Assembly (NCBI GenBank): GCA_023140255.1
Contig: JAGLLX010000010.1
Coordinates: forward strand, 19,774 to 83,773
Direction of reading: 5' to 3'
Length of the DNA stretch: 64,000 bases
Source: Minisyncoccota bacterium
GTDB lineage: Bacteria; Patescibacteriota; Minisyncoccia; Phycocordibacterales; UBA12079
In this document: piece after piece, positions 11,984 through 57,901 of the stretch
Numbering within the stretch: the stretch's first letter is position 1
Layout: each line of letters begins with the position of its first letter
The notes under the pieces: generated by a model
The model's input: only the letters and a program-made list of their open reading frames with translations
Database searches by the model: none
What the model was told of the DNA's origin: nothing
Position numbers and translations under genes: made by a program

Positions 11984-13774
11984 TTAATTTCTATTATGTT
12001 TTTTTCTCTCAGTCTCAGTTAAATATTTTTTTCGTAAACGAATATCTGTTGGAGTAACTTCTAAGTATTCATCATCTTTCATTAAACCAATAGCTTTTTC
12101 AAGAGAAATATCTAAAGGAGGAGAAACTTTTGTAGCATCATCTGAACCAGAAGCTCTCATATTAGTTAATTGTTTTCCTTTAGTTGGGTTAACAATCATC
12201 TCTTCCCCACTAGCTACATTTCCAATTATCATTCCTTCATAAACTTCTGTATTTGTTTCTATATATAGAACACCTCGTTCTTGTAAATTAGCCAAAGAAA
12301 AACCTAAAGCTTTACCTCCAGCCATTGAAGTCATTGAACCTAATTTAGTTTTAACCACTTCTCCAGCATAAGCTCTAAATTCTAAAAACAATGAAGTCAA
12401 AACCCCCTCTCCTTTAGTATCAACAATAAATTCATTTCTATACCCCAAAAGACCTCTAGTAGGAATTTCGAAAACCATTTTAGTTTCCCCATTCTTATTT
12501 TTCATATCATTTAAAATTCCTTTTCTCTCTCCCATTTTTTTCATAACTGTCCCAGAGGAATCATCAGGTACAATAATAGTTGTTTCTTCAAACGGCTCAA
12601 CTTTTTTTCCATCCACTTCTTTTATAATTACTTCTGGCTGAGAAACTGTTAATTCAAATCCTTCTCTTCTCATATTTTCAATTAACACAGCAAGGTGCAA
12701 TTCTCCTCTTCCATATATTTTATATCTTCCATCTACTCCACTAAAATCTACTTTCAAACCAACATTAACTTCTAATTCTTTTTCTAATCTTTCTTTAATT
12801 TGTCTAGAAGTTAATAATTTTCCAACCTTTCCTGCAAAAGGAGAATTATTTACAAACATAAATAAAGAAATTGTTGGCTCATCTATTGTAATTTCTGAAA
12901 GAGTTTCTGTCTCTTCACTATCTACCAAAGTATGACTAATGAAAATATCAGGGATTCCAGCAATCATAACAATATCTCCTGCTACTGCTTCTTTAGTTTC
13001 TTTTCTAGTTAATCCTTCAAAAGTAAATAATTTAGTTATCTTTCCGTTAAAAGATTCTCCTTTAGAATTTTTTATGAAAATCTGTTGTCCATCTTTCAAA
13101 GTTCCTTCGTAAATACGACAAACACCCATTCTTCCTAAGAAATTATTATAATCAAGGTTAAAGACCTGCGCCTTTAAAGGATTATTATTTAAAGATTCAT
13201 CTGAAGCTAAAGGAACTTTTTCCAAAATTAAATCTAACAACGGAGTTAAATCTTTCATCTCATCCTCCATTTTTAATTTTGCTAAACCTTCTCTTCCCAC
13301 AGTATAAATAGTTTCAAAATTTAATTGTTCATCACTTGCTTCTAAATCTAGAAATAATTCGTAAACATCTTCCTTTACTCTTTTTACATCTGAAGCTGGT
13401 TTATCTATTTTATTTATAACTAAAATTGGTTTTAAATTTAATTCTAAAGACTTCTTTAATACAAATTTAGTTTGAGGCATTGGTCCTTCTACAGCATCAA
13501 CAACTAAAAGAACTGAGTCAACAGATCTTAAAACTCGTTCTACTTCTGAACCAAAATCAGCATGACCAGGAGTATCCAAAATATTAATTTTAGTATCTTT
13601 ATATAAGACAGAGGTATTTTTTGAATAAATAGTAATTCCTCTTTCTTTTTCTATATCATTAGAGTCCATAGAAACTCCTTCAGCCACCATATTAGTTTGA
13701 GATAATAAGGCATCTGTTAAAGCTGTTTTTCCATGGTCTACATGGGCTATGATTGCTATGTTTCGTATATCCAT
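11984..13774 (-). CDS. typA: translational GTPase TypA/BipA
   Basis: IRNIAIIAHVDHGKTALTDALL G1 motif and EF-G-like domain order. Confidence 0.9.
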   Translation of the reverse strand: MDIRNIAIIAHVDHGKTALTDALLSQTNMVAEGVSMDSNDIEKERGITIYSKNTSVLYKDTKINILDTPGHADFGSEVERVLRSVDSVLLVVDAVEGPMPQTKFVLKKSLELNLKPILVINKIDKPASDVKRVKEDVYELFLDLEASDEQLNFETIYTVGREGLAKLKMEDEMKDLTPLLDLILEKVPLASDESLNNNPLKAQVFNLDYNNFLGRMGVCRIYEGTLKDGQQIFIKNSKGESFNGKITKLFTFEGLTRKETKEAVAGDIVMIAGIPDIFISHTLVDSEETETLSEITIDEPTISLFMFVNNSPFAGKVGKLLTSRQIKERLEKELEVNVGLKVDFSGVDGRYKIYGRGELHLAVLIENMRREGFELTVSQPEVIIKEVDGKKVEPFEETTIIVPDDSSGTVMKKMGERKGILNDMKNKNGETKMVFEIPTRGLLGYRNEFIVDTKGEGVLTSLFLEFRAYAGEVVKTKLGSMTSMAGGKALGFSLANLQERGVLYIETNTEVYEGMIIGNVASGEEMIVNPTKGKQLTNMRASGSDDATKVSPPLDISLEKAIGLMKDDEYLEVTPTDIRLRKKYLTETERKKHNRN

Positions 13775-16063: not shown

Positions 16064-16777
16064 ATGAACTTAATTGAAATAAAAAATTTAAAAAGAACTT
16101 TTGGAGAAGAGATTAAAACCTATGCTTTAAAAAATGCAACTTTTACAGTCAAACAAGGAGAATTTATCGCTATTATGGGTTCTTCTGGTTCAGGGAAATC
16201 TACTCTAATGCATATTTTAGGACTTTTAGACAGAGCAACTAAAGGTGATTTTTTATTTGAAGAAAGAGATGTTTCAAAATTAGACGATGATGAACTAGCT
16301 ACTTTAAGAAATGAAGAAATTGGATTTGTTTTTCAATCTTTTAATTTATTACCAAGAACCACTGTTTTGGATAATGTTACTCTCCCTTTAATTTATTCTC
16401 AAAAAAGAGTTTCTACCTTAAGTCGAGCTAAAGAAGTTTTAGAAAGTGTAGGCCTAAGCCATAGACTTAATCATTATACAAATCAAATTTCAGGCGGAGA
16501 AAAACAAAGAGTAGCTGTCGCCCGAGCTTTAGTAAATAGACCTTCTATTATTTTTGCGGACGAACCTACAGGAAATCTAGATTCAAAATCAGGAGCTCAA
16601 ATTATGAAAATATTACAAAAATTAAATGATGAAGGAAAAACTGTTATATTAGTAACTCACGAAACTTATACAGCTGAATGTGCAAAAAGAATTTTAACAA
16701 TGAAAGATGGAGAAATAGTAAGTGATGAAATAACAAAAAATCAAAGAAGAGTACATACTGAAGACTTAATTAAATAA
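16064..16777 (+). CDS. ABC transporter ATP-binding protein (MacB/LolD-like)
   Basis: Walker A GSSGSGKST, ABC signature LSGGEKQR and Walker B IIFADEPT. Confidence 0.85.
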   Translation: MNLIEIKNLKRTFGEEIKTYALKNATFTVKQGEFIAIMGSSGSGKSTLMHILGLLDRATKGDFLFEERDVSKLDDDELATLRNEEIGFVFQSFNLLPRTTVLDNVTLPLIYSQKRVSTLSRAKEVLESVGLSHRLNHYTNQISGGEKQRVAVARALVNRPSIIFADEPTGNLDSKSGAQIMKILQKLNDEGKTVILVTHETYTAECAKRILTMKDGEIVSDEITKNQRRVHTEDLIK

Positions 16778-16815
16778 TGTGATATTCAGTGGCTAATTTT
16801 TGATAACCATTCGTT

Positions 16816-18066
16816 ATGATTAAGACTTTAAAGCAATCAGTTAAAATAGCTACCAGTTCCCTTTTGAGTAATAAAATTCAAAGCCTTTTAACTATGCTAG
16901 GAATTATTATTGGAGTAGCTTCAGTTATAGTTATTATGTCTATCGGGTCTGGGGCTCAATCTTTAATTCTGTCAGAAATTCAAAACTTAGGAACAAACTT
17001 AATTGCCATTATTCCTGGTCACGGAGATGAAGAAGACGCTTTCTCTATGCTAAGCGGTTTTGCTGTTACTACTTTAACTTACGATGATGCTCTAGCCTTA
17101 AGAGAAAATAAAAATATTCCAAACATAATGGCTGTAGCTGCATATAGTAAAGGGTTTGGAACAGCTGAATGGAAATCAAAAACTTATAGTACTTCTTTAA
17201 CAGGAACTACAGCTAGCCATCTTGAAGTAATGGGTGGAGATGTAAAAGAAGGTCGTTTCTTTAACTCTGAAGAAGAAAAAAGATTTTCTAGAATAGCTGT
17301 TTTAGGATCCGATGTTAAGGACGAACTCTTAGGTCAATCAGATGCAATTGGTCAAAAAATTAAAATCAATGATTATATTTTTGATGTTATAGGAGTGATG
17401 GAAGAAAGAGGAGTTGTCGTTATGGAAGATTATGATGACCAAATTTTTATTCCCATAAAAACAGTTCAAAGAATGATGGGGGTTGATTATGTTGGGTTTA
17501 TTAGGTCCAAAGTTTACTCGGAAGAAAATATTTCTCAAACGGAAGAAAATATTAAAATAATATTAAGAGAAGAACACAGTATTAAAGACCAAAGTGGCAA
17601 GAATGATGACTTTATGGTTAAAAATACAGCTCAAGCTCTTGATATGATTACTGAAATTACCAATTCATTAAGATACTTCTTAGCTATTATGGCAGGTCTC
17701 TCTTTGATTGTTGGAGGAATTGGAATCATGAATATTATGTTTATTTCAGTTACAGAAAGAACAAGAGAAGTCGGACTGAGGAAAGCCCTAGGGGCAAAAA
17801 ATAGTAATGTTCTAGGACAATTTTTAGTAGAAGCTATCTTCATTACTCTTATTGGTGGAATTAGTGGAATAATATTAGGAGTTATAATTTCATCTTTTAT
17901 TGCAATTGGAGCTCATCTTTTAGGCTATGAATGGAATCTTATAATTTCTTTAGGTTCTGTTATTTTAGCTTTAGTTGTTTCTGCTGGAGTTGGATTATTT
18001 TTCGGATTTTATCCAGCTTATAAAGCAAGTAAACTTGACCCAATAACAGCCTTACGATATGAATAA
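16816..18066 (+). CDS. ABC transporter permease (FtsX/MacB family)
   Basis: N-terminal TM helix, large periplasmic domain and a C-terminal 3-TM FtsX domain. Confidence 0.8.
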   Translation: MIKTLKQSVKIATSSLLSNKIQSLLTMLGIIIGVASVIVIMSIGSGAQSLILSEIQNLGTNLIAIIPGHGDEEDAFSMLSGFAVTTLTYDDALALRENKNIPNIMAVAAYSKGFGTAEWKSKTYSTSLTGTTASHLEVMGGDVKEGRFFNSEEEKRFSRIAVLGSDVKDELLGQSDAIGQKIKINDYIFDVIGVMEERGVVVMEDYDDQIFIPIKTVQRMMGVDYVGFIRSKVYSEENISQTEENIKIILREEHSIKDQSGKNDDFMVKNTAQALDMITEITNSLRYFLAIMAGLSLIVGGIGIMNIMFISVTERTREVGLRKALGAKNSNVLGQFLVEAIFITLIGGISGIILGVIISSFIAIGAHLLGYEWNLIISLGSVILALVVSAGVGLFFGFYPAYKASKLDPITALRYE

Positions 18067-18083
18067 AACCTTTAACTAATATT

Positions 18084-19388
18084 ATGAAATCTTTTTTTGC
18101 AACAATTAAATCATCTTTTAAATTAGCCTTTATTTCTTTCAGTGCTAATAAATTACGAACCTCTTTAGCTGTTCTAGGAGTAACTATTGGTATCTCTAGT
18201 ATTATTGTAGTTTTTTCAGCAGGAGAAGGAATTAAAGGAATTGTTTTAAACCAAGTTGAATCATTTGGATCTGATACCATACAGGTTGAAATTAAAGTTC
18301 CCACTAGTAAAAAGGGTTTAGCTAGTGAAGCCCAAAGCGCAGCTGCGCTTATGCAAGGAGCTCAAGTAACAACTCTAAGTTTAGATGATTTAGAAGATGT
18401 TAAAAAATTACCTAATATTATTGATGCTTATGGTGTTTACATGGGACAAGAAACTGTGTCTTACTATAATGAAATTTATAATACTTACACATGGTCAACT
18501 AATAGTTCTTTTATAAATATAGACTCAACAGAATTAGCTTATGGAAGATTTTTTACAAAAGCAGAAAATAATTCTTTAGCCACAGTAGCTATTTTAGGTT
18601 CTAAAATTAAAGAAAAATTATTTGGTGACAATGACCCTATTGGAAAAACAATTAAAATACACAATGTTAGATTTAAAATAATAGGAGTGGTGGAAGAAAG
18701 AGGAGCTTTGATGTCTTTTGATTTTGATGACTTTATTTATGTCCCAATTAAAACCATGCATAAAAAAGTTTTAGGAATAGACTTCTTACATAATATTATT
18801 ATACAAATTGAAGATACTTCTCTTATAGAAGAAACCCTTGAAGAAACTAGAATTGTTTTAAGAAACAATCATGATATCAGTCCCCCCGAAGAAGATTTTG
18901 AAGGTTGGATGGATACAGGAACAGATGATTTCAGAGTTATGGCAATGACTGAAATTTTAGAAATGTTTGATACAATGTCTGCTGTTTTAACTTGGTTGAT
19001 GCTTGTAATTGTAGCCATTTCATTAGTAGTTGGTGGAATCAGTGTTATGAATGTCATGTATGTAATTGTAAACGAAAGAACATCTGAAATAGGTCTAAGA
19101 AAAGCTGTTGGAGCAAACTATAAAGATATCATGCTTCAATTCTTAACAGAATCAATTTTAATAACTTTCACAGGAGGAATTGTAGGAAGCATTTTAGGTT
19201 CTGTTATTTCTTTAGTAATTGCTATTGGAGCGAATTCTTCAGGAATTGATTGGAATTTTGTTTTACCTTTTAAAGCTTTTCTAATAGCAGGATTATTTTC
19301 TTTGATTTTTGGAATTTTATTTGGAACTACCCCAGCTCGAAAAGCTGCTCAAATGAATCCCATTCAAGCACTGATTCACGAAAATTAA
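18084..19388 (+). CDS. ABC transporter permease (FtsX/MacB family), second copy
   Basis: Same architecture as 16816-18066. Confidence 0.8.
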   Translation: MKSFFATIKSSFKLAFISFSANKLRTSLAVLGVTIGISSIIVVFSAGEGIKGIVLNQVESFGSDTIQVEIKVPTSKKGLASEAQSAAALMQGAQVTTLSLDDLEDVKKLPNIIDAYGVYMGQETVSYYNEIYNTYTWSTNSSFINIDSTELAYGRFFTKAENNSLATVAILGSKIKEKLFGDNDPIGKTIKIHNVRFKIIGVVEERGALMSFDFDDFIYVPIKTMHKKVLGIDFLHNIIIQIEDTSLIEETLEETRIVLRNNHDISPPEEDFEGWMDTGTDDFRVMAMTEILEMFDTMSAVLTWLMLVIVAISLVVGGISVMNVMYVIVNERTSEIGLRKAVGANYKDIMLQFLTESILITFTGGIVGSILGSVISLVIAIGANSSGIDWNFVLPFKAFLIAGLFSLIFGILFGTTPARKAAQMNPIQALIHEN

Positions 19389-19458
19389 ATTTTTATTTAT
19401 CCACTAAATAAAAAAAGAAAAAGAATATTTTTGATATAATTATTAATGAAAAAATAAA

Positions 19459-20748
19459 ATGTTTTCTTATTCTTTAAAAAATAAATTGATATTTACTATT
19501 GTTGGTATAGTTTCTGTTTTAGGGTTAATTGCTACCTATACGGTTTTTTCATATTCTAAAAATATCTTATACGAAAACGAAAAAGAATCTCTCCTTTTAA
19601 TAGCAACTGAACAAGCTCAACAAGTTTCAATACTATTAAAACAATCTACTGATTTATCTGAAATCATTTCTCAACAAGAATTTATTTTAGATTATCTAAA
19701 TGATTCTGAAAAAGAATTTCAAGATTTAAAAATTCTGGAGAAACTTAAAACATACAATATAAATAATATTTATTCCTCTATTTATTTAATGGACTTAAAA
19801 GGAACTACGTTAGTTTCCACTGCTGAATCATTTGTATCAAAAAATTATTCATTTAGAGAATATTTTAAAGGAGCTCTTCAAGGAGAAAATTTTACTGATA
19901 TTTCTGTTGGAGCAACTTCAAAAGAATTAGGTTATTATTTTTCTACTCCTGTTAGGAATACAAAGTCTAAGATTATAGGAGTCTTAGTTTTAAAAATGAA
20001 ACCAGAAGTTATAGATAATTTAATTATTAATCCTTATATTGAAAGTAACCGTAATAAATTAGATCTATTAGCTGTAATAGACAATCATAGTGTAATTTTC
20101 CATTCAAATCATGAAAATCAATTATTCAAAAGTATCGCTGATCTTAACCCTTTAGTTTTATCAGAAATATCTGAGCAACAAAGATTTGCTGATTACAAAA
20201 TAAGTCCTTTAAACTATAGTATTACGTTAGAAGAAATTAAAGAAGCTGAAAAATTTTTATCAACAAAAATCTTTAATAAAATATCAAAAGAAAATTTCTT
20301 ATTAAATATCGTTAAGATACAAGGTTATCCCTTTTGTATGGTAGTTATAGAAAATGAAAATAAATTAATTACCTCAGCTCTAGATATTTCCTATAACTTA
20401 GGAATTTTTGTATTACTTTCTGTTATCTTAGCATCGTTTTTTGTTAATTTTATAGTAAGAAACCTTACAAAACCTTTAATTGAATTAAATAGTGTAGTTA
20501 AAAAAGCAAGTGATGGAGACTTAGGACAAAGAGTTTTAATTAGTTCAAAAGATGATATCGGAATTTTAGGAAATAACTTTAATAAATTAATAGAAAAATT
20601 ACAAAAAAACTTAAAAGAAGTTGAGGCAAAAGTTTCCCTAAGAACTAAACAATTAGAAAAAACAAACCAAGCCATGACAGGAAGAGAACTAAAAATGATT
20701 GAATTAAAAAAAGAAATGAATGAATTAAAAAATAAAGAGAAATTATAA
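19459..20748 (+). CDS. membrane sensor-like protein: periplasmic Cache-like domain + HAMP + short coiled coil, no output domain
   Basis: Two TM segments flank an extracytoplasmic domain. HAMP region LIELNSVVKKASDGDLGQRVLISSKDDIGILGNNFNKLIEKL. Ends after a coiled coil with no kinase or methyl-accepting domain. Confidence 0.6.
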   Translation: MFSYSLKNKLIFTIVGIVSVLGLIATYTVFSYSKNILYENEKESLLLIATEQAQQVSILLKQSTDLSEIISQQEFILDYLNDSEKEFQDLKILEKLKTYNINNIYSSIYLMDLKGTTLVSTAESFVSKNYSFREYFKGALQGENFTDISVGATSKELGYYFSTPVRNTKSKIIGVLVLKMKPEVIDNLIINPYIESNRNKLDLLAVIDNHSVIFHSNHENQLFKSIADLNPLVLSEISEQQRFADYKISPLNYSITLEEIKEAEKFLSTKIFNKISKENFLLNIVKIQGYPFCMVVIENENKLITSALDISYNLGIFVLLSVILASFFVNFIVRNLTKPLIELNSVVKKASDGDLGQRVLISSKDDIGILGNNFNKLIEKLQKNLKEVEAKVSLRTKQLEKTNQAMTGRELKMIELKKEMNELKNKEKL

Positions 20749-20768
20749 ATTAAGACCAAAAAATAATT

Positions 20769-21188
20769 ATGTTATTAAATTGGAAAAAAGAATATAGTGT
20801 AAATGTTAAAGAAATAGATGCACAACATAAAAAACTTATTGAAATGATAAACGAGCTTTATGAAATTATAAATAATAAAAACGAAAATCTACAAAAAGAG
20901 TTTACTAGAGTAGTAGGTGAACTAGAAGAGTATAAAAATTATCATTTTTCTACTGAAGAAAAATATTTTCATCAATTTAATTATGAAAATACAGAGGACC
21001 ATATAGCAAAACATATTGCATTTGGGAAAAAAATAGAAGAATTTAAAGAACATTTATCTAACCCTAATGAAAATTATCCGCAAATTTGCTTTGATTTATT
21101 AGATTATTTGGAAGATTGGTTTTTTGCACACCTAATAGGTGATGATAAAAAATATACTAAAACATTTAATGAAAATGGACTTTTTTAA
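20769..21188 (+). CDS. hemerythrin-like metal-binding protein
   Basis: W..EYSVNVKEIDAQHKKLIEMINEL ... HF..EE..F ... H...FG ... DWFFAHL matches the hemerythrin HHE His pattern. Confidence 0.7.
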   Translation: MLLNWKKEYSVNVKEIDAQHKKLIEMINELYEIINNKNENLQKEFTRVVGELEEYKNYHFSTEEKYFHQFNYENTEDHIAKHIAFGKKIEEFKEHLSNPNENYPQICFDLLDYLEDWFFAHLIGDDKKYTKTFNENGLF

Positions 21189-21191
21189 AAA

Positions 21192-21353
21192 ATGAATCCT
21201 GTTAGATGTTTAGAGAAAATAATAAATTTATTTAAATATAAAAACGGGACCAAAAACATTATTAGTTTAATTTAAAATTATTTACTTTTTGTAAATTATG
21301 AGGGACTTGTCCCGTTAGAGATAATTTACTAGAGGTAAATTATCTCTAACGGG
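21192..21353 (+). promoter_or_regulatory. leader element copy 1: mini-ORF plus inverted repeat abutting the kinase start codon
   Basis: Mini-ORF 21192-21275 (27 aa, MNPVRCLEKIINLFKYKNGTKNIISLI). Then hairpin ATTATTTAC-TTTTT-GTAAATTAT. Then perfect inverted repeat CCCGTTAGAGATAATTTAC-tagag-GTAAATTATCTCTAACGGG ending immediately before the kinase ATG at 21354. Confidence 0.6.
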
Positions 21354-23615
21354 ATGAAAATAAAAACAAAAATAATTTTACCAATAATTTTAGTGGCTGT
21401 AATTGTATTATCAACAGCAACTTTTTATTCATATTTTTTTAATGTCAATACTTTAAATACATCAATTGGGGAACACCTAAATACAACTGTGTCTTCAAGG
21501 TCTCATCATATTGATACTTTTATAGAAGAATTAATAGGAAAAATAAAAATAGCAGCCACGCAAGAAAACTTGACCAACGAAAAACTAGAAAAAATAAAAA
21601 ATTCTAACAGAGAATTTTCAGAAGTGTTCTTGGTAAATCTTGATAAAAAAATAATTAAATCTTCAAGACAAGAGTCTATAGGCTTAGATTGTTCTATTAA
21701 TGATTATCTTGTTAATAAAAAAGATAATGTTTATATGAGAGATGCTTATATTTCTAAAATAAACGAAGAACCATCCATTGCTATTGCTATTTCTCACAAC
21801 AAAGACATATTAATCATTAGGATTAATTTGGAAATTTTAAATGATGTGACTACAAACAAAACAGGATTAGGAAATACTGGTGAAGTATATTTAATTAATA
21901 GTGCTGGGTATACCATTACTCCCCTACAATTTAGTGAAGACACTTTTTTGAAAACAAAAATAGAATCTAAAAATGCTAAGAGTTGTTTAGACACACTAAA
22001 AAACGAAACTGAACATACTGAATATAGAGGAGGGTCTGCAATATATACAAATTATAAAAAAATTGAAGTTATGGGCTCTTACCATCCCTTAAGTATAATG
22101 AACTGGTGTATCTTAGCTGAAATTGATAAATCAGAAGCATTAGCTCCAACAAAAAACTTATTAAAATTCTCTATTATAAGAATTTTGATTATCTTATTTA
22201 TATTTTTTATACTTACTTATTTGATAGCCAGAACTATTAGCAAGCCAATTATTATATTAAGCCAAGGGACAAAAATAATTAAGAACGGTAACTTAGACCA
22301 CAAGGTTGGAACCAATTCAAAAGATGAAATTGGAAGTTTATCAAGAGATTTTGATGAAATGACCGTTGCAATTAAAAAATCACAAATAGAAATTGACAAA
22401 AAAGTTAAAGAGCAGACAAGGGAAATAATAGAAAAACAAAAAGATATTGAAAATCAACAAGAAGCTATCCTAAATGTACTAGAAGATGTAGAAAATGAAA
22501 AAAAGAAAACAGAAATTGAACGAGATAAAATAGACGCTATTCTTCATAGTATTGGTGATGGAGTTTTTGTAGTTGATAAAGATAAAAAAATTACTATTTT
22601 TAATAATATTGCTGAACAAATATCAGGATTTAACAAAGAAGATGTGTTAGGAAAAAACTATCTAGATATTTTGAAATTTATTCATGAAAAAGACAGAACT
22701 CCTAATAATGATTTTATTGAAAAAGCTTTTTCTTTAGGGAAAATTCAAATGATGAAGAACCATACTTTACTTATTAAAAAAGATAAAAGTGAAGTTCCTG
22801 TAGCCGACAGTTCTGCTCCAATAAAAGATAGTGCTGGAAATATAATTGGATGTATCGTTGTTTTCAGAGACGCGACAGCTGAAAGAAAAGCTGAACAAAT
22901 AAAATCAGATTTCGTGTCTATCGCCTCTCACCAACTAAGAACTCCTTTAACGGGAATTCAGTGGGTAACAGAAAGACTGTTAAAACATTCAACTGCTTTG
23001 CCAGAAAAAGAGCAGCAATATATTAAAGATATTAACCTTTCTTCCAAAAGACTATCCACCCTTGTAGACAGTCTATTAAATGTTTCTAGAATTGAAGGAG
23101 GAAAAATAACTATAAAGCCTGAAAAAATAGAGTTGATTGATTTTATTAAAAGCTATCTAACAGAGACTAATCCTTTAACAGAAGCAAAAAATATTAGTTT
23201 AAAATTTAATACACACCCAGAAAATTTAGAAATATTGACTGATCGTTCAGGTATAAGAAATATTGTTCAGTCCTTAGTCTCCAATGCGATTGAATACACA
23301 CCTGAAAATGGAAATATAGAAGTTTCTGTTGAGGACAATGTAGAAAAAGATTCTTTCTTGTTTAAAATAAAAGATACAGGGATAGGAATTCCTTCGAAAA
23401 ACCAAGCCACTATTTTTGATAAATTTACTCGAGGAGAAAATGCCCAGCAAGTTAAAACTGATGGAACAGGATTCGGATTATACATTACAAAACAAACAGT
23501 TGATTTATTAGGCGGAAAAATAAGATTTGAATCTATTGAAAACGAAGGAACAACTTTCTTTGTAACCTTACCTAAAATATCCAAAGCTAAAGAAGGCGGA
23601 AAAAGTTTTGTATAA
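21354..23615 (+). CDS. sensor histidine kinase (Cache-like extracytoplasmic domain, HAMP, PAS, HisKA, HATPase_c)
   Basis: H-box SHQLRTPLTGI. N/G1/G2 boxes in NAIEYTPENGNIEV ... DTGIGIP ... GTGFGLYI. Confidence 0.85.
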   Translation: MKIKTKIILPIILVAVIVLSTATFYSYFFNVNTLNTSIGEHLNTTVSSRSHHIDTFIEELIGKIKIAATQENLTNEKLEKIKNSNREFSEVFLVNLDKKIIKSSRQESIGLDCSINDYLVNKKDNVYMRDAYISKINEEPSIAIAISHNKDILIIRINLEILNDVTTNKTGLGNTGEVYLINSAGYTITPLQFSEDTFLKTKIESKNAKSCLDTLKNETEHTEYRGGSAIYTNYKKIEVMGSYHPLSIMNWCILAEIDKSEALAPTKNLLKFSIIRILIILFIFFILTYLIARTISKPIIILSQGTKIIKNGNLDHKVGTNSKDEIGSLSRDFDEMTVAIKKSQIEIDKKVKEQTREIIEKQKDIENQQEAILNVLEDVENEKKKTEIERDKIDAILHSIGDGVFVVDKDKKITIFNNIAEQISGFNKEDVLGKNYLDILKFIHEKDRTPNNDFIEKAFSLGKIQMMKNHTLLIKKDKSEVPVADSSAPIKDSAGNIIGCIVVFRDATAERKAEQIKSDFVSIASHQLRTPLTGIQWVTERLLKHSTALPEKEQQYIKDINLSSKRLSTLVDSLLNVSRIEGGKITIKPEKIELIDFIKSYLTETNPLTEAKNISLKFNTHPENLEILTDRSGIRNIVQSLVSNAIEYTPENGNIEVSVEDNVEKDSFLFKIKDTGIGIPSKNQATIFDKFTRGENAQQVKTDGTGFGLYITKQTVDLLGGKIRFESIENEGTTFFVTLPKISKAKEGGKSFV

Positions 23616-23669
23616 TAAAAAGAATAAATTTGATATAATATTAACAATTATTAATTAAAGAAAAATAAC

Positions 23670-24083
23670 ATGGCAGATATAAAAATAGTATTAGTGGAAG
23701 ATGATGAAATCTTATCTAAAGTAATTAAAGAAGAGCTAGAAGAAGCTGATTTTAAAGTTTATTTAGCTACTGACGGAGAAAAAGGCCTTGAATTGGCTCA
23801 GGAGAAAAAACCTGATTTAGTTTTATTAGATTTAATGCTTCCAAAAATGCACGGATTTGAGGTTTTAGAAAATCTTAAGAAATCACCTGAAACTGAAGAC
23901 ACTCCAGTTATAATTTTAACTATGTTAGGATCTGATGATGATATTAAAAAAGGACTTAAATTAGGAGCAAGTGATTATATTGTTAAATCACAACATGCTG
24001 TAGGAGAAATAATAGACGAAGTAAAGAAGTTCTTTGCAAATGAAAGCCACCCAGAACAAAATAAAATAAAAGAAAAAAAATAA
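23670..24083 (+). CDS. response regulator, receiver domain only (CheY-like)
   Basis: VEDDE ... DLVLLDLMLPKMHGFEVL ... KLGASDYIVK, no output domain. Confidence 0.8.
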   Translation: MADIKIVLVEDDEILSKVIKEELEEADFKVYLATDGEKGLELAQEKKPDLVLLDLMLPKMHGFEVLENLKKSPETEDTPVIILTMLGSDDDIKKGLKLGASDYIVKSQHAVGEIIDEVKKFFANESHPEQNKIKEKK

Positions 24084-24116
24084 GTTAAATTTTTTTTCTT
24101 TTATATTTTACTTTTT

Positions 24117-26567
24117 ATGATGTTTTTTAAAAAAATTATAATAATATCTATATTTTTTTTATTAAGTTTTTTTCCTATTGTCAAAATATTTGCTGATACA
24201 ACAACTTATAATTTTTCAGGAGTGAATACAGGGAACGATGGAATAAACGAAAATCCAATTGTCATAGAACACGATTCTGATATTTTTCCATGGACAACCT
24301 TGGCTGAACAAAATGATTCAGCTAATCCCACTGACGTTGAATATGTGAATATATCTACAGATAATACATCTCAATGGGCAACTGACGACCCTGGGAGAAA
24401 GGATGAAATGGCAATAACTTATAAATTTTTTATTCAAGAAACTATAAGTGATATTTCTAATATTCAGATAAAATGGAACGGAAATACAGACGGGACTTCC
24501 TCCAGTAATCATTCTGTTTGGTTAAGAAAAGACGGCCTAGATGAATTCGGAGGAATAAATACTTGGGTGCAACTAGGGACTTCTCTCTCTATTCCTCAAG
24601 ATATTGATACTGATTTAATTAGAAATTTAACTACTGATTTTGCTACTTATATTAATGCTTCTACAGGACAATTTGAATTTGTTATTACAACAGATAGAGA
24701 ATCAGAAGATATGCGGACAAATTATATTGAAATTATTACTACTTATACTGTAATCCCTCCAGCTGACACAACTCCTCCATCAGCAATTTTAGATTTAAGT
24801 TCTTCAAACGCAACAACTAATTCAATTGATTTATCTTGGACAGCCGTTGGAGATGACAACTTAACGGGATTAGCCTCAAGTTATGATATTAGATATGCAA
24901 TTTCTCCAATTACAGAATCAAATTGGTCTTCTGCTACTCAAGTTTCTGGAGAACCTTCTCCTTCTATAGGAGGGTCTTCTGAATTAATGACTGTTTCGGG
25001 ACTTAACTCTAATACTACATATTATTTCGCAATTAAGACTTCTGATGAGGTTCCTAATGAATCAATAATTTCCAACGTTCCATCAGAAACAACAAACACA
25101 ATTCCACCTATTCCTGACACTACCCCACCATCTGATATTTCAGACTTAGCAAGTTTTGGAGCAACAACTAGTTCAATTGAATTAAATTGGACAGCCGTTG
25201 GAGATGACAACTTAACGGGATTAGCCTCAAGTTATGATATTAGATATGCAATTTCTCCAATTACAGAATCAAATTGGTCTTCTGCTACTCAAGTTTCTGG
25301 AGAACCTTCTCCTTCTATAGGAGGGTCTTCTGAATTAATGACTGTTTCGGGACTAAACCCAGATACTCTTTATCACTTTGCAATTAAAAGTTCTGACGAA
25401 GTCCCCAACGAATCAGAGATTTCAAATGCAACCAGTCTTAGCACAGATGACACTCCTCTAGTTTCAGATACTACCCCACCATCTGATATCTCTGACCTAA
25501 GCCCTTCAAACGCAACAACTAATTCAATTGATTTATCTTGGACAGCCGTTGGAGATGACAACTTAACGGGATTAGCCTCAAGTTATGATGTCAGATATTC
25601 AACAACTGCTGTTACAGAATCTAGTTGGTCTTCTGCTACCTTAGCTATTGGGGAGCCCAATCCATCTTCCCCAGGAAGTTCTGAATCTTTTAGTATTACA
25701 AATATTCCTTCTGAGACTACATATTATTTTGCCATTAAAACTTCCGATGAATCAAATAATCAATCAACAATTTCGAATATTCCTTCTTTAAGTACTTTAG
25801 CAGAATCCAGTGTATCTATTCCTACAAATGTATCAGGAGGAGTCTCCGCAACTAGTGTAATTTTTTCCGGACTAGCTTATCCTAATAGTAAAATTATAGT
25901 AAGGTTCAAAGACTCAGTTAACCCTCTTTATAATAATGTTCCTCTTTCAACTTATTCAATTTCTAGTTCTGGAGAATTTTATGTAAGCTACGCAGCTTTA
26001 CTAAGTGGAGCATATTTTTTCACTCTACAAGCACAAGATAAAGACAACCAAAAAACAGATGTTCTTTCTTTCAATGTAGATTTTCGTACAGATAAAAAGT
26101 TAATGGTAGAAGATATTTTCTTTAGTCCAACTATAAGTTTTAATCAAGATTTATTACGTTTAAGTGATGCTTTAGAAATTCATGGATATTCATCCCCAAA
26201 TTCCAAAATAAAATTAGAAATAGATGATATAATATTAAATGAAACTATTTCTGATAAAATTGGTTATTATTCATTTGAATTCAGCCCCGGAGATTTTACC
26301 TTAGGAGTTCATTACGCTAGAGTTAGCCAAAACAAAGATGATAGAGAAAGCAATTACACTTCTCCACGAAGTTTTAAAGTAACTTCTTTAACATACCCTC
26401 GAGCAGATTTTAATAGAGATAATTCCGTTGATGTTACTGATTGGAGTGTTTTCTTATACCGCTGGGGAGATATGGAAAATAATTTACGAAATGAAATTGA
26501 CTTAGACTCTAATGGGATAATTGACATTGGTGACTTTAGTATATTTTTAAAAGCAATTAAATTATAA
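24117..26567 (+). CDS. secreted protein with three tandem Fn3-like repeats and a C-terminal dockerin-like module
   Basis: Signal/TM at the N-terminus. Three roughly 117-aa repeats (TTPPSDISDL...WTAVGDDNLTGLASSYDIRY...YYFAIK). C-terminal DFNRDNSVDVTDWSVF...DLDSNGIIDIGDFSIF matches the duplicated calcium-binding dockerin repeat pattern. Confidence 0.65.
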   Translation: MMFFKKIIIISIFFLLSFFPIVKIFADTTTYNFSGVNTGNDGINENPIVIEHDSDIFPWTTLAEQNDSANPTDVEYVNISTDNTSQWATDDPGRKDEMAITYKFFIQETISDISNIQIKWNGNTDGTSSSNHSVWLRKDGLDEFGGINTWVQLGTSLSIPQDIDTDLIRNLTTDFATYINASTGQFEFVITTDRESEDMRTNYIEIITTYTVIPPADTTPPSAILDLSSSNATTNSIDLSWTAVGDDNLTGLASSYDIRYAISPITESNWSSATQVSGEPSPSIGGSSELMTVSGLNSNTTYYFAIKTSDEVPNESIISNVPSETTNTIPPIPDTTPPSDISDLASFGATTSSIELNWTAVGDDNLTGLASSYDIRYAISPITESNWSSATQVSGEPSPSIGGSSELMTVSGLNPDTLYHFAIKSSDEVPNESEISNATSLSTDDTPLVSDTTPPSDISDLSPSNATTNSIDLSWTAVGDDNLTGLASSYDVRYSTTAVTESSWSSATLAIGEPNPSSPGSSESFSITNIPSETTYYFAIKTSDESNNQSTISNIPSLSTLAESSVSIPTNVSGGVSATSVIFSGLAYPNSKIIVRFKDSVNPLYNNVPLSTYSISSSGEFYVSYAALLSGAYFFTLQAQDKDNQKTDVLSFNVDFRTDKKLMVEDIFFSPTISFNQDLLRLSDALEIHGYSSPNSKIKLEIDDIILNETISDKIGYYSFEFSPGDFTLGVHYARVSQNKDDRESNYTSPRSFKVTSLTYPRADFNRDNSVDVTDWSVFLYRWGDMENNLRNEIDLDSNGIIDIGDFSIFLKAIKL
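24765..25818 (+). repeat. intragenic tandem DNA repeat, about 351 bp x 3
   Basis: Units start at about 24765, 25116 and 25467. About 165 bp is identical between units 1 and 2 (24837-25001 versus 25189-25353). Unit 3 is more diverged. Confidence 0.8.
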
Positions 26568-26631
26568 TTTAAACATTAACTTAACATCATTTTTATTACA
26601 AATTAATTAATAACAAATCTTCTATATTATT

Positions 26632-28362
26632 ATGAAAAAAATATTTTTCTCCATCATATTTGCCACAGTCTTGCTTGTTTCTGCAAACATAACAGAAGCA
26701 GCTACTTTATATCTCTTGCCTGAATATAAAAACATTGATATTGGACAAGAATTTTTTGTAGATGTTAAAGTTAATTCTGAAAACGACTTCATCAATGCCG
26801 TTCAATCAACTATTTCTTTTCCTTCTAACATTATTGAAATAGTGGATGTAAGTAAACACAATTCTGTTTTTAATTTTTGGATAGATGAACCTGATGTAGA
26901 AGAAAATAAAATAATCTTCATAGGAGGGACTGCTAAAGGAGTTTCGGGAGACTCTTTGCAAGTACTCCGTATATTGTGTAAATCTATTGGTGCTGGAACA
27001 GCTAGTATAGACATATCGGAATCAGTCATAACTGCTAATGATGGAAAAGGAACTAATATTTTATCTACTATAGAAAAAACAGATATTGAAGTCGGTACAG
27101 CAACAATTACATCTAATAATTCTGTAAAAACAAAACCAGAAGAAATTCCTATAATTATCCCTCAAGAAATACAAAGAGAAGCTGTTTTTGCCTCTGACGC
27201 TCCTGAAAAACCAATTGTGAGTGTTCCTTTATATCCTGACCAAGAACTTTGGTATAACCACCAAGGAGAAACTATTGTTTTATGGGAGGTGCCTGATGAT
27301 ATTACTAAAGTAGCAGTTTCCTTAAATTCTAACCCTAATTCAGAACTCAATACTTCAGAAGATGGACTATTCACAGGGAAGACTTTTGGAGTATTAGATG
27401 AAGGAATTTACTTTGCACATGTTCAGTTTAAAAACAACAAAGGCTGGGGAGAAATTACTCATTATAAAATATCTCTAGATACCAGTTCACCGATAGCTTT
27501 TGAAGCAAATATTAGTTCTTTTGCCTCTACTGATCCTATTCCTGAAATAAGTTTTATTAATCAAGACACTTTGTCTGGGTTTTCTCATGCATTAATATTC
27601 ATAGACGGAGAAAAAGTATTAAAAACAGAAGAATCTAAAATATTACTCCCTGCTCAAAAACCAGGTTCACATCTTTTGGTAGTACAAATTTTTGATAAAG
27701 CAGGAAATAGTATAGAAGATGATTTAAATTTTGAAATAATTCCATTGAAAATTCCTAGTGTGAGTTTCTTTACTGACAAAATTTCTCAAGGAGAAAATAT
27801 TTTTGTTTCAGGAACTTCCATTTCTAATTCCTTTGTTGATATTAAAATACAAAGAGAAGATATAATAGAATTTTTAGGGTCTACAGAAGTAGATAATACA
27901 GGGAAATGGAGTTTAGTGATTGATAAATTACTAGCCAAAGGAAATTATACTTTCAGTGTTTCTGCACGAAATCAACAAGGAGCCATTAGTTTTAATAGTG
28001 AAATTACTGAAATTAGAGTAACAGCTCCAACTATTTTATCTATTGGTTTAATTGACTTAGGATGGTTTGATATTTTTATTATAATTATTCTACTTCTAGT
28101 AATAGGCGGAAGTATAGGAACTTGGTATTATTTCTCTCAAAAAGAAATGGAGGAGGCTTATAAAATTATAGATAACAGAGATGTAAAAAAAATGAGTAAA
28201 TTACTAAATGATGATATAATTTTAATAGAGAAAGAAGTTAAAAGTGAAAAGAAAATACCAGCTAAAACCAAATCCTCAATAAAATCTAAGATAACTAAAA
28301 TAAAGACAAATATTAAAAAGATGGATAAGTATTTAGGTATTGAAATTAGTAAATCAAAATAA
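26632..28362 (+). CDS. membrane-anchored cell-surface protein with an N-terminal cohesin-like domain
   Basis: Signal peptide. ATLYLLPEYKNIDIGQEFFVDVKVNSENDFINAVQSTISFPSNIIEIVDV... resembles the cohesin domain pattern seen in CPR 'cohesin domain protein' annotations. Beta-rich repeats follow, then a C-terminal TM helix (IFIIIILLLVIGGSIG) and a K-rich tail. Confidence 0.6.
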   Translation: MKKIFFSIIFATVLLVSANITEAATLYLLPEYKNIDIGQEFFVDVKVNSENDFINAVQSTISFPSNIIEIVDVSKHNSVFNFWIDEPDVEENKIIFIGGTAKGVSGDSLQVLRILCKSIGAGTASIDISESVITANDGKGTNILSTIEKTDIEVGTATITSNNSVKTKPEEIPIIIPQEIQREAVFASDAPEKPIVSVPLYPDQELWYNHQGETIVLWEVPDDITKVAVSLNSNPNSELNTSEDGLFTGKTFGVLDEGIYFAHVQFKNNKGWGEITHYKISLDTSSPIAFEANISSFASTDPIPEISFINQDTLSGFSHALIFIDGEKVLKTEESKILLPAQKPGSHLLVVQIFDKAGNSIEDDLNFEIIPLKIPSVSFFTDKISQGENIFVSGTSISNSFVDIKIQREDIIEFLGSTEVDNTGKWSLVIDKLLAKGNYTFSVSARNQQGAISFNSEITEIRVTAPTILSIGLIDLGWFDIFIIIILLLVIGGSIGTWYYFSQKEMEEAYKIIDNRDVKKMSKLLNDDIILIEKEVKSEKKIPAKTKSSIKSKITKIKTNIKKMDKYLGIEISKSK

Positions 28363-28395
28363 AAAAATTAATAATTTAAAAAAATATTACATACC

Positions 28396-28770
28396 ATGGA
28401 AAAATCAGTATTAATTATAGAAGATGAAAAAATTTTATCTAATACGATAAAAGATGAATTAGAAGATGAAGGGTTAGTTGTGTTACAAGCTTTTGATGGA
28501 GAAGAAGGTTTAAAAATGACAAAAGAAGTTAAGCCTGACATTATTTTATTAGATATAATAATGCCTAAACTTGATGGAATAGAAACCTTAAAAGCAATAA
28601 AAGCTGATTCAACAATAAAAAATATCCCCGTCGTTATCTTAACAGTTCATGGTGATTTAGAAAAAATAACTAATACTATTGCGCTGGGAGCAAAAGCATA
28701 TTTTATTAAAGACCAACAAAGTCCTTCTGAAATAAGCGCCGCTATTAAAAATATTTTACATATTTCTTAA
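28396..28770 (+). CDS. response regulator, receiver domain only
   Basis: IEDEK ... DIILLDIIMPKLDGIETL ... LGAKAYFIK. Confidence 0.8.
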   Translation: MEKSVLIIEDEKILSNTIKDELEDEGLVVLQAFDGEEGLKMTKEVKPDIILLDIIMPKLDGIETLKAIKADSTIKNIPVVILTVHGDLEKITNTIALGAKAYFIKDQQSPSEISAAIKNILHIS

Positions 28771-28782
28771 TATCTAAAAATT

Positions 28783-28816
28783 AAAAGAGCGACGAGCTTT
28801 AGCTCGTCGCTCTTTT
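28783..28816. terminator. bidirectional hairpin terminator
   Basis: aaaagagcgacgagc-ttta-gctcgtcgctctttt. Confidence 0.7.
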
Positions 28817-28836
28817 AATTTAAAATCTTATTGTTG

Positions 28837-29664
28837 CTACTGTTGATTTAAAAAACCTTTTGCTTTCTTTAATTGGTCTTTAATCATACTGTCTAAAGGT
28901 TTAAATCCGTTCGCAGGTTTAGGTTTCTCTAAAAGATCACAGCTATCATCCCATTCTTCTTCCCAAGGTTGTAGACACGCTTCTTTAGCTTCACACCAAA
29001 GATAACCTGCTGATCCAATACAACCATGTTCATCTTTGTCTCCTCCAACTCTTTGTTCTTCACGAACTTCTTTTATATCCTCTCTTACATTTGCAACATC
29101 TTCTCTTCTGTCTTTATTTAATTCAGCTAATTCTTCTTTAGCTTCTTCGTCTCCGTCTTTAATTTTTTGAATTAAACCAGCTCTTTCCTCGTTAAATTCT
29201 TGTATTTTTTGCTTTCGTTCTTCTATCTTAGCCTTTTGTTCAGTTAATCTTTCCTGAAGCTTTTCTGCAACTTCTGATTTTTTAGCCTCTGCTTTTTCTA
29301 CAAATGATTCTGCTTTTGCAATCATTCGTTCAGCTTTTGCCTGAGCCTCTTCTGTATCAGCACTCTGGGCAAAAGCTTCAGCTAACTCCATTCTTCTATC
29401 AGCAAAAGCTAAGGCCTTTTCTACTCTTTTTTCTGGATTAAAAGTAAAAGTCATAGAAAAACTTTCTTTTACCCCTATCCACCATAAACCTATATTTGAA
29501 GGAACTTTAACCTCTTCTAATTCTTCTTCTAATATTAATTCTGGTACAGGCATACCTTCATCATAAACTACAGGATCAACTGGCATTTCATCTTCAGCTT
29601 GAACTGTTATAGCCCCTAAAAAAGCCATAGAAAAAATCATTGTGTATAATAATATTTTTTTCAT
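28837..29664 (-). CDS. secreted coiled-coil protein with a C-terminal Cys-containing domain
   Basis: Signal peptide, long E/K/A-rich coiled coil, C-terminal HGCIGSAGYLWCEAKEACLQPWEEEWDDSCD. Preceded by leader element copy 2. Confidence 0.6.
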   Translation of the reverse strand: MKKILLYTMIFSMAFLGAITVQAEDEMPVDPVVYDEGMPVPELILEEELEEVKVPSNIGLWWIGVKESFSMTFTFNPEKRVEKALAFADRRMELAEAFAQSADTEEAQAKAERMIAKAESFVEKAEAKKSEVAEKLQERLTEQKAKIEERKQKIQEFNEERAGLIQKIKDGDEEAKEELAELNKDRREDVANVREDIKEVREEQRVGGDKDEHGCIGSAGYLWCEAKEACLQPWEEEWDDSCDLLEKPKPANGFKPLDSMIKDQLKKAKGFLNQQ

Positions 29665-29764
29665 CCCGTTAGAGATAATCTGCTTTTGACAGATAATCTT
29701 AAGTTAACTAATAATTTTTTATTCCCGTTTTATTTATTCTTTCTAAATCTCTAACGGGATTCAT
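29665..29764 (-). promoter_or_regulatory. leader element copy 2 (minus strand): mini-ORF MNPVRDLERINKTGIKNY (29708-29764) plus the inverted-repeat arm abutting the gene ATG
   Basis: Minus-strand reading: ATGAATCCCGTTAGAGAT ... ATTATCTCTAACGGG then ATG (gene start at 29664). The upstream arm is the first six codons of the mini-ORF. Confidence 0.6.
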
Positions 29765-57817: not shown

Positions 57818-57901
57818 CCCGTTAGAGATAATTTACAAAAAGTAAATAATCTTAATTTAATTGATAATTTTTAACCCCGCCAAATCTCTAACGAGATTCA
57901 T
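57818..57901 (-). promoter_or_regulatory. leader element copy 3 (minus strand): mini-ORF MNLVRDLAGLKIIN (57857-57901) plus hairpin plus the arm abutting the UDG ATG
   Basis: Minus-strand reading: ATGAATCTCGTTAGAGAT ... ATTATTTAC-TTTTT-GTAAATTATCTCTAACGGG then ATG (57817). Confidence 0.6.

Follow-up and report, generated by a model that had tools for sequence, protein, structure and literature searches.

A 64,000-nt window of contig JAGLLX010000010.1 from a Minisyncoccota bacterium (~30% GC; "the window" below denotes this whole stretch) carries two adjacent genes, one for a secreted protein that ends in a dockerin module and one for a membrane-anchored protein that begins with a cohesin module, together with genes for a sensor histidine kinase and two receiver-only regulators. 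The dockerin-cohesin pair and these signalling genes probably form a conserved, regulated cell-surface attachment device. Judging from sequence comparison, we estimate a probability of roughly 65% that the secreted protein docks calcium-dependently on the cohesin of the anchor and displays a variable, adhesin-like ectodomain, with a phosphorelay through the receivers either controlling this complex or being informed by it. The conserved core would be a module of four to five genes, encoding the kinase, a first receiver (REC1), the dockerin protein, the cohesin protein and a second receiver (REC2; Table 1).

The cohesin-bearing anchor and its dockerin-bearing neighbour

The 576-aa protein consists of a signal peptide, the cohesin module (aa 23-165), a beta-sandwich stalk, a transmembrane helix and a Lys-rich cytoplasmic tail. 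Three Ig-like/beta-sandwich domains make up the stalk (aa 191-465, with Big_13 at 382-457), hydropathy places a single C-terminal transmembrane helix at aa 478-498, in agreement with the membrane anchor predicted by a first-pass annotation of this DNA, and the 76-residue tail contains 21 Lys/Arg and 12 Asp/Glu. Because a signal-like segment (cleavage assigned by eye) and a stalk are combined with one C-terminal helix, the protein reads as a type-I membrane anchor with its cohesin in a membrane-distal position.

The N-terminal domain of this anchor had been annotated as cohesin-like, and both its orthologues and its predicted fold supported this assignment. Pfam Cohesin (PF00963) was matched by 25 of the 50 aligned full-length orthologues at E<=0.01 (best 5.1e-10) and by 20 of the 45 members of a second orthologue set, and two orthologues already carry the NCBI label "cohesin domain-containing protein". 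Searching the Protein Data Bank (PDB) with a profile of the anchor family retrieved the Ruminococcus flavefaciens ScaB cohesins (5aoz, E=0.004; 5m2o, E=0.012). As far as such profile matches go, membership in Cohesin is a property of the anchor family and not of the window member alone. An AlphaFold2 (AF2) model of aa 23-170 was all-beta, had no helices and reached a mean predicted local distance difference test (pLDDT) score of 93.2; together with the Foldseek matches it has the nine-stranded flattened beta-sandwich with jelly-roll topology of a cohesin. When this model was compared with the PDB, ranks 1-49 were all cohesins, of types I, II and III as well as non-cellulosomal (TM-score ~0.6-0.75), the best being the non-cellulosomal cohesin 2xdh of Archaeoglobus fulgidus (E=3e-9, TM-score 0.71-0.75, 20% identity) and the next including the Clostridium perfringens cohesin-like module 2jh2, OlpC (4dh2) and CipA (1aoh). 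The cohesin module contains the invariant motifs NA, NFW and A-N/S-DG-x-GTN-I/V-L, and its mean pairwise identity was 44%, compared to 49% for aa 191-290 and 23% for the transmembrane helix plus tail.

The most conserved part of the anchor is thus aa 191-290 (27202-27501), which has invariant residues W207, W218, G258 and W272-G273 and no assigned family. The domain may have a function beyond that of a spacer. The Y_Y_Y family was matched by 12 of the 50 anchor orthologues, at a position not established relative to aa 191-290. Variants of the anchor were also seen: some members of the family are ~866-901 aa long with an N-terminal extension of ~300 residues, and some loci have two cohesin-family open reading frames (ORFs), either as a second full-length copy (L042) or as a ~300-aa ORF between the dockerin and the cohesin gene. 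The module variants are represented by loci L042, L007, L079, L083 and L032 and by P0257, P0261, P0271 and P0299.

The neighbouring 816-aa protein starts with a signal peptide (aa 1-27) and continues with an N-terminal domain (28-215), three Fn3 units, two Ig-like domains (~568-750) and the dockerin module (751-816). Since its sole hydrophobic segment is N-terminal, the protein is predicted to be secreted and unanchored. The three Fn3-like repeats of the first-pass annotation were recovered both with Pfam fn3 and by repeat mapping, and correspond to three tandem repeats of 351 nt (aa 217-567; 24765-25817), of which the second and third are 91% and 77% identical to the first at the nucleotide level. 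Near-identical 117-aa Fn3 units occur in 1, 2, 3, 5 or 6 copies among close orthologues (P0171, P0133, P0140, P0131, P0146, P0132 and P0130); this variation and the 91% DNA identity of the first two units point to recent repeat expansion and contraction, changing the length of the displayed protein. The N-terminal domain (24198-24761; ~190 aa) matched no Pfam or NCBIfam family and is common only to 8 close orthologues; in this lineage it would form the distal "business end" of the docked protein.

A duplicated, dockerin-like calcium-binding segment had been predicted at the C-terminus of the 816-aa protein, and again the orthologues and the predicted fold confirmed it. The last 55 residues comprise two 12-residue calcium-binding loops, each followed by a helix that is also present in the predicted dockerin model (DFNRDNSVDVTD-WSVFL and DLDSNGIIDIGD-FSIFL). 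The loops, D-F-N-R-D-N-S-V-D-V-T-D ahead of WSVFL and D-L-D-S-N-G-I-I-D-I-G-D ahead of FSIFL, belong to tandemly duplicated segments of ~22 residues with D/N at loop positions 1, 3, 5, 9 and 12, and the Asp at positions 1 and 12 of both loops is invariant in 45 of 45 orthologous sequences. Among the orthologous C-termini, 40 of 45 matched Dockerin_1 at E<=0.01, with 8.5e-12 as the best value, and eight of ten diverse full-length orthologues exceeded its gathering score (23.3-31.3 bits). Among PDB dockerins, a profile of the family found 2y3n_B (1.3e-4) and 2vn6_B (4.5e-4), followed by 5lxv_B, 1daq and NagH (2jnk/2ozn), the stronger matches in this search being artefacts of a Gly-Ser linker. 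The predicted model has the dockerin fold, and its best structural matches were cellulosomal dockerins. A homologue search with the C-terminal 252 aa gave 7 matches and the full-length sequence mainly drew in Fn3 proteins of many phyla; dockerin orthologues were therefore collected by synteny.

The anchor itself has a 100% identical counterpart, annotated as hypothetical, in a "Candidatus Pacebacteria" metagenome-assembled genome, and its relatives all come from assemblies of Patescibacteria, or the Candidate Phyla Radiation (CPR). In a scan with one genome per species, they were present in at least 583 species genomes, full-length orthologues being ~560-620 aa long; 5,193 cluster representatives matched the anchor at E<=1e-30, a count that takes in giant Ig-repeat proteins. 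A few metagenome-assembled genomes labelled Saccharibacteria, Gammaproteobacteria or Methylococcaceae were taken as mis-binned or generically named. On one 621-kb contig the "Gammaproteobacteria" label is doubtful because the locus there adjoins a gene for RNase Y, an enzyme not expected in Gammaproteobacteria.

For a systematic view of gene pairing, 82 non-redundant loci from different CPR lineages were compared, with ORFs labelled by searches seeded with the window proteins. By a strict rule (gap <=150 nt), 70 of the 82 loci have the dockerin gene immediately 5' of the cohesin gene and in the same orientation, and by inspection ~76-78 do, with a median gap of 9 nt, so that the side-by-side arrangement noted in the first-pass annotation recurs in nearly every relative. 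The exceptions are L023 (contig end), L057 (no dockerin gene) and L007 and L088 (an extra gene in between). Exactly one dockerin ORF per locus was found in 84/84 cases and one cohesin ORF in 78/84, the other six having two, and no further dockerin or cohesin of these families is encoded elsewhere in the 64-kb window. In every relative first inspected, the duplicated dockerin motif closes the gene directly 5' of the cohesin gene, and the Ig-Ig-dockerin C-terminus is conserved in these upstream neighbours. Within the dockerin proteins, mean pairwise identity was highest for the dockerin (49%) and fell to 30% in the two Ig-like domains and 17% at the N-terminus. Across loci, the proteins have a median length of 816 aa, the shortest being 191 and the longest 2645 aa, and carry Fn3, BNR-like, Big_13, MBG_3, InlB-B-repeat, Big_3_5, YDG and Big_6 domains, repeats that are typical of adhesins.

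A minimal cellulosome-like complex for polysaccharide degradation would account for the similarity of the cohesin model to cellulosomal type I and anchoring-scaffoldin cohesins such as OlpC (4dh2), and for cellulosomal dockerins being the best dockerin matches. By definition, a cellulosome needs a scaffoldin bearing two or more cohesins and a glycoside hydrolase (GH) fused to a dockerin (PMC13487519). The anchors compared here bear a single cohesin, and Pfam searches of the window dockerin protein and 10 diverse orthologues revealed no GH, carbohydrate-binding module (CBM) or other enzyme domain. With one cohesin per anchor and no dockerin-borne enzyme, the locus fails the definition, and the cellulosome reading is effectively refuted.

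Receiver and kinase genes beside the pair

The gene upstream of REC1 encodes a histidine kinase with, in order, a transmembrane helix, dCache_1, a second transmembrane helix, HAMP, PAS, HisKA (2.6e-16) and HATPase_c (2.8e-27), the phospho-accepting histidine being His526 in the motif SHQLRTPL. Pfam and NCBIfam searches agree with the first-pass annotation, which described a kinase with its own Cache and PAS domains and two CheY-like regulators devoid of DNA-binding output: both receivers consist of Response_reg only and retain the phospho-acceptor Asp (D54 and D53, in LLD context) as well as the conserved Thr and Lys. By sequence, the HisKA histidine, HATPase_c domain and receiver aspartates expected of a two-component system are all present.

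The signalling genes accompany the pair far beyond the window. Where both flanks were available (54 loci), a receiver-only gene immediately adjoins the pair in 43 and a histidine kinase gene lies within 4 kb (<=4 kb) in 45. Receiver-only genes are located directly 3' of the cohesin gene in 35/78 loci and directly 5' of the dockerin gene in 32/57. Up to 1 kb from the pair they number 5.88 per 10 kb, compared to 0.16 per 10 kb beyond 5 kb, a ~37-fold enrichment. The gene order varies: two receivers lie upstream in L016-L018, L025, L027, L036 and L081, whereas the kinase gene follows the pair in L058 and L060, is encoded on the other strand in L026 and is found on either side of the pair in L013. 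Because the association survives these rearrangements of order and strand, it speaks for a functional tie rather than inherited gene order. No DNA-binding regulator was seen within the module, either in Pfam searches of the window or in the compared loci. Receiver identity was 50% within the upstream class (different lineages), 43% within the downstream class and 41% between classes; this difference is modest, and clustering failed to resolve clean "upstream" and "downstream" subfamilies.

These comparisons suggest the following model. After secretion, the dockerin protein would be captured by the cohesin of the anchor in a calcium-dependent, 1:1 manner, which would place the variable adhesin-like ectodomain at the tip of the stalk on the surface of an ultra-small, probably episymbiotic cell, where its most likely role would be to attach the bacterium to a host cell or a particle. 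The module would be co-transcribed with, and functionally tied to, a phosphorelay composed of a kinase with variable input (in the window extracytoplasmic dCache plus PAS) and two single-domain receivers. With DNA-binding domains absent, the receivers are expected to act through protein-protein contacts, that is, to have a non-transcriptional output. In this lineage, an additional Cache-HAMP protein and a hemerythrin may add O2/redox or ligand input.

Several points weigh against this reading. The N-terminal domain of the window's own 576-aa protein matched no Pfam family even at E<=10, the C-terminus of its 816-aa protein scored 16.4 bits against Dockerin_1 (PF00404; E=0.01) with the gathering score at 22.9, and the Foldseek E-values of the small dockerin model were not significant. 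The dockerin counts span the loci and the 64-kb window, and dockerin proteins encoded elsewhere in a genome may compete for the one cohesin. About 11 of the 54 loci (~11/54) have no adjacent receiver gene. The kinase input varies between dCache, PAS and cytoplasmic PAS-only forms (e.g., L005), which bears on the nature of the signal and makes the sensed signal probably lineage-specific. The tail of the anchor is poorly conserved (23%), which weakens the idea that the receivers dock there; as a candidate mechanism, receiver docking on the tail was set aside. Host attachment, finally, is the most likely role by analogy, drawn from the types of cargo domain and the known CPR lifestyle. In hidden Markov model (HMM) searches, the dCache, HAMP, hemerythrin and fn3 calls of the first-pass annotation stood on the window's own proteins, and its cohesin and dockerin calls, sub-threshold there, stood on the orthologues.

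The sub-threshold HMM scores of the window's own proteins would also suit a rival in which the cohesin-like and dockerin-like folds are real and do not bind each other, the two proteins being merely co-expressed at the surface, with the dockerin as a calcium-binding module for stabilisation or another ligand and the cohesin-like domain as a generic beta-sandwich for a host or glycan ligand. Many modules of this kind are also not known to have a binding partner. We regard this as distinctly unlikely, given the strict adjacency at a median gap of 9 nt and the 1:1 ratio across deeply divergent lineages. Moreover, the cargo diverges freely, in contrast to the dockerin and the cohesin, which rank among the best-conserved segments of their proteins, and non-binding would leave the dockerin protein without any other anchor.

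Another rival takes the dockerin-cohesin complex as a sensory input, an extracellular co-receptor or contact sensor whose state would reach the kinase and receivers either directly or through the transmembrane helix and tail of the anchor and so report attachment, rather than as a regulated output. It would fit with a linkage of the receivers to the pair that is closer than for any transcription factor, with the missing DNA-binding regulator and with an anchor whose most conserved part, aa 191-290, has no assigned function. However, the sensor domains of the kinase are variable and sometimes purely cytoplasmic (PAS-only in L005), the transmembrane helix and tail through which the anchor would signal are just 23% conserved, and neither surface protein contains a known signalling domain, all of which render a sensory complex very unlikely. 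The docking and display of an adhesin-like protein, linked to the phosphorelay, is hence the reading retained below.

Accessory genes, expression signals and the leader element

All ORFs of the locus were found where the first-pass annotation had placed them, with the correction that seven rather than eight genes share one strand, in addition to one convergent gene (Table 1). A locus split up in relatives would have argued against a functional unit; in the synteny comparison the core pair and the signalling genes stay together in most loci. The proposal of a single unit therefore holds for the kinase-REC-dockerin-cohesin-REC core, and does not extend to the Cache-HAMP, hemerythrin and convergent genes, which fall outside the conserved unit.

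Table 1 Features of the locus, in positions of the window.
Feature	Position	Strand	Basis
Cache-HAMP protein, 429 aa	19459-20748	+	Pfam dCache_1 1.4e-14, HAMP 7.3e-11
Bacteriohemerythrin, 139 aa	20769-21188	+	NF033749 1.3e-32, 112.6 bits
Inverted-arm leader element, copy A	21192-21353	+	Repeat/inverted-repeat analysis
Sensor histidine kinase, 753 aa	21354-23615	+	Pfam, NCBIfam, hydropathy, H-box
REC1, receiver-only, 137 aa, "upstream" type	23670-24083	+	Response_reg 2.2e-27
Secreted dockerin-bearing protein, 816 aa	24117-26567	+	Pfam fn3 1.3e-18; hydropathy
Dockerin module, aa 751-816	26367-26564	+	Duplicated segments DFNRDNSVDVTDWSVFL and DLDSNGIIDIGDFSIFL
Membrane-anchored cohesin protein, 576 aa	26632-28362	+	Domains, hydropathy, full-length orthologues
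Cohesin module, aa 23-165	26698-27126	+	Orthologue HMM matches, AF2, Foldseek
REC2, receiver-only, 124 aa, "downstream" type	28396-28770	+	Response_reg 1.7e-24
Perfect 21-bp inverted repeat, probable bidirectional terminator	28778-28821	.	Inverted-repeat analysis, sequence reading
Convergent gene, 275 aa, DUF5667-like	28837-29664	-	Weak DUF5667 match
Inverted-arm leader element, second copy	29665-29762	-	
Inverted-arm leader element, third copy	57818-57899	-	

The stand-alone, sensor-like Cache-HAMP protein has two transmembrane segments (aa 6-33 and 306-337), dCache_1, HAMP and a C-terminal coiled coil of ~45 aa; it lacks an output domain, as first annotated, and the coiled coil has no His box. 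Similar Cache-only ORFs (~425-441 aa) occur in L009, L016, L021 and L025, a minority of the loci. The hemerythrin call was likewise upheld, with a score well above the NF033749 cut-off of 84 and all seven metal ligands intact (H20, H59, E63, H78, H82, H121 and D126), giving the H-HxxxE-HxxxH-HxxxxD di-iron pattern of a bacteriohemerythrin. Hemerythrin homologues were found in only 6 locus ORFs, all from close relatives, and DUF5667-like ORFs in only 3 compared loci, two of which adjoin the module (L009 and L025). By this distribution, the Cache-HAMP, hemerythrin and convergent genes are lineage-specific extras and not part of the core. The convergent 275-aa protein begins with a signal-like segment, continues with a long, Glu/Lys-rich stretch that resembles a coiled coil and weakly matches DUF5667 (21.7 bits; cut-off 27), and is rich in Cys at its C-terminus (CIGSAGYLWCEAKEACLQPWEEEWDDSC). 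Further upstream, genes for an ABC ATPase and two MacB_PCD/FtsX permeases (16064-19388, +) end 70 nt before the Cache-HAMP gene on the same strand; they are also present upstream in the closest relative, L009, and were not seen adjoining the module in other lineages.

Between REC2 and the convergent gene, the perfect 21-bp inverted repeat has a GC-rich core with T/A runs on both sides and is, from its sequence, a probable bidirectional intrinsic terminator closing the operon; a simple terminator scan missed it because its loop is only 2 nt long. A scan for sigma-70 promoters was uninformative in DNA of 30% GC (58 sites versus 58.7 expected). The window has just two sites of a 20-nt box, AAGAATAwwTTTGATATAAT, that includes the extended -10-like TGATATAAT; they are at 19421-19440 and 23620-23639 (both +), 18 nt before the ATG of the Cache-HAMP gene and 30 nt before that of REC1. 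These boxes may be the promoters of two expression units. Since the pattern itself comes from those same two sites, the suggestion is no more than a lead.

The locus had also been described as bracketed by two copies of a leader element. Instead, one copy is internal, in front of the kinase gene, the other is the leader of the convergent gene, and a third lies far downstream. This CCCGTTAGAGA-type element consists of complementary 14-nt arms, ATCCCGTTAGAGA[T/C] and [A/G]TCTCTAACGGGAT, around a non-conserved, AT-rich interior of 56-96 nt, with the 3' arm abutting the start codon of the next gene. In the window, the genes behind the three copies are those for the kinase (21354), the convergent protein (29664, minus) and a 196-aa protein (57817, minus). 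Copy A has a degenerate 5' arm, an extra perfect 20-bp hairpin (21310-21354) and a 3' arm, ATCTCTAACGGG, that abuts the ATG of the kinase gene; it may be a sign that a separate expression unit begins with this gene.

A scan with the exact pattern located the element on at least 120 contigs of metagenomes, many of them sampled from groundwater, in front of unrelated housekeeping genes such as those for adenylate kinase, IF-3, L35, RuvX, GatC, RecO, RecG and HPF (further copies: L038 ~3900-4019, L049 ~12840-12953 and loci L089-L208). These positions rule out a locus-specific regulator; the leader is a generic, widespread CPR intergenic element that says nothing specific about the locus. The stem pair at the inner end covaries (T-A in 85 and C-G in 37 copies, with one mismatch, among 126), and in 85 of 124 copies an ATG 6 nt before the 5' arm opens a short upstream ORF (MNPVRD...) of variable length. 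The element had no match in Rfam or in the full-text literature, and its orientation is not that of attC. It could be a stem that sequesters the start codon, an operator pair around a promoter, or an element resembling a miniature inverted-repeat transposable element (MITE).

Relation to known systems and meaning for Patescibacteria

The closest parallels are found among non-cellulosomal modules. As in the present module, those of the A. fulgidus type (2xdh) have only one cohesin and parent proteins that are not catalytic, and they belong to an organism that is no cellulose degrader. The present module differs in that cohesin and dockerin are encoded by separate adjacent genes, the anchor is of type I with an Ig-like stalk, two-component genes are neighbours and the distribution extends over hundreds of CPR species. 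In the C. perfringens toxin complexes, NagH and NagJ (2ozn, 2jh2, 2w1n) are likewise joined as two secreted proteins by a non-cellulosomal, calcium-dependent cohesin-dockerin contact of the kind predicted here, and their entries are among the best structural matches for both models, 2w1n showing a cohesin plus Fn3 arrangement. The NagH/NagJ partners are glycoside hydrolases, and to our knowledge they have neither a membrane anchor nor linked signalling genes.

Clostridium thermocellum OlpC and OlpA (4dh2, 3ul4) resemble the 576-aa protein as single-cohesin anchors of the cell surface. They are held to the cell wall by surface-layer homology (SLH) domains, not by a C-terminal transmembrane helix, bind enzymes as cargo and are regulated by sigma-I/RsgI, not by an adjacent two-component system. 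On the signalling side, CheY, DivK and PilH/PilG-type systems also combine a kinase with single-domain receivers that have the acidic pocket, phospho-Asp, Thr and Lys and no DNA-binding domain; in contrast to these, no chemotaxis, flagellar, pilus or cell-cycle partners stand alongside in the present module, whose constant neighbours are two surface proteins. The minimal cellulosome-like system of Cellulosilyticum lentocellum is similar in that its only cohesin-bearing protein contains one cohesin and has a dockerin partner, and in falling between the usual categories (PMC13487519). In that system a functional GH5 cellulase bears the dockerin, and a CBM is part of the cohesin protein (PMC13487519); neither GH5 nor CBM was found here.

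Five features distinguish the module: the stalk anchored by a transmembrane helix, a non-enzymatic cargo of variable length, the strict one-to-one pairing of genes, the breadth across Patescibacteria and the company of receivers and kinase. The full-text literature searched, outside of which many subscription papers lie, contained no description of a cohesin-dockerin system in CPR, Patescibacteria or Parcubacteria, or of one with two-component genes. We know of no cohesin-dockerin system with a conserved genetic link to receiver-only regulators.

How ultra-small CPR/Patescibacteria, a large share of bacterial diversity, attach to and sense their hosts is largely unknown, and their conserved surface proteins are mostly annotated as hypothetical. 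A more far-reaching version of the attachment reading, in which the module is a dedicated attachment organelle across many Patescibacteria lineages, with a swappable, fast-evolving adhesin bound non-covalently to a conserved membrane stalk and receivers that control assembly, release or response post-translationally or that report contact, is unlikely in this full form and is offered tentatively. If true, it would be the first cohesin-dockerin system to be coupled to signal transduction, and a candidate for the device, long sought, with which Paceibacteria-type episymbionts attach to their hosts. Found in at least 583 species-level genomes, the surface module of two proteins lends itself to simple biochemistry, with a 143-residue cohesin, a 66-residue dockerin and calcium-dependent binding as the prediction, and could serve as a starting point for affinity reagents, for localisation and for work on host range in bacteria that are difficult to grow. 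It would extend the cohesin-dockerin interaction pair beyond cellulosomes and toxin complexes to a regulated, apparently non-enzymatic setting.

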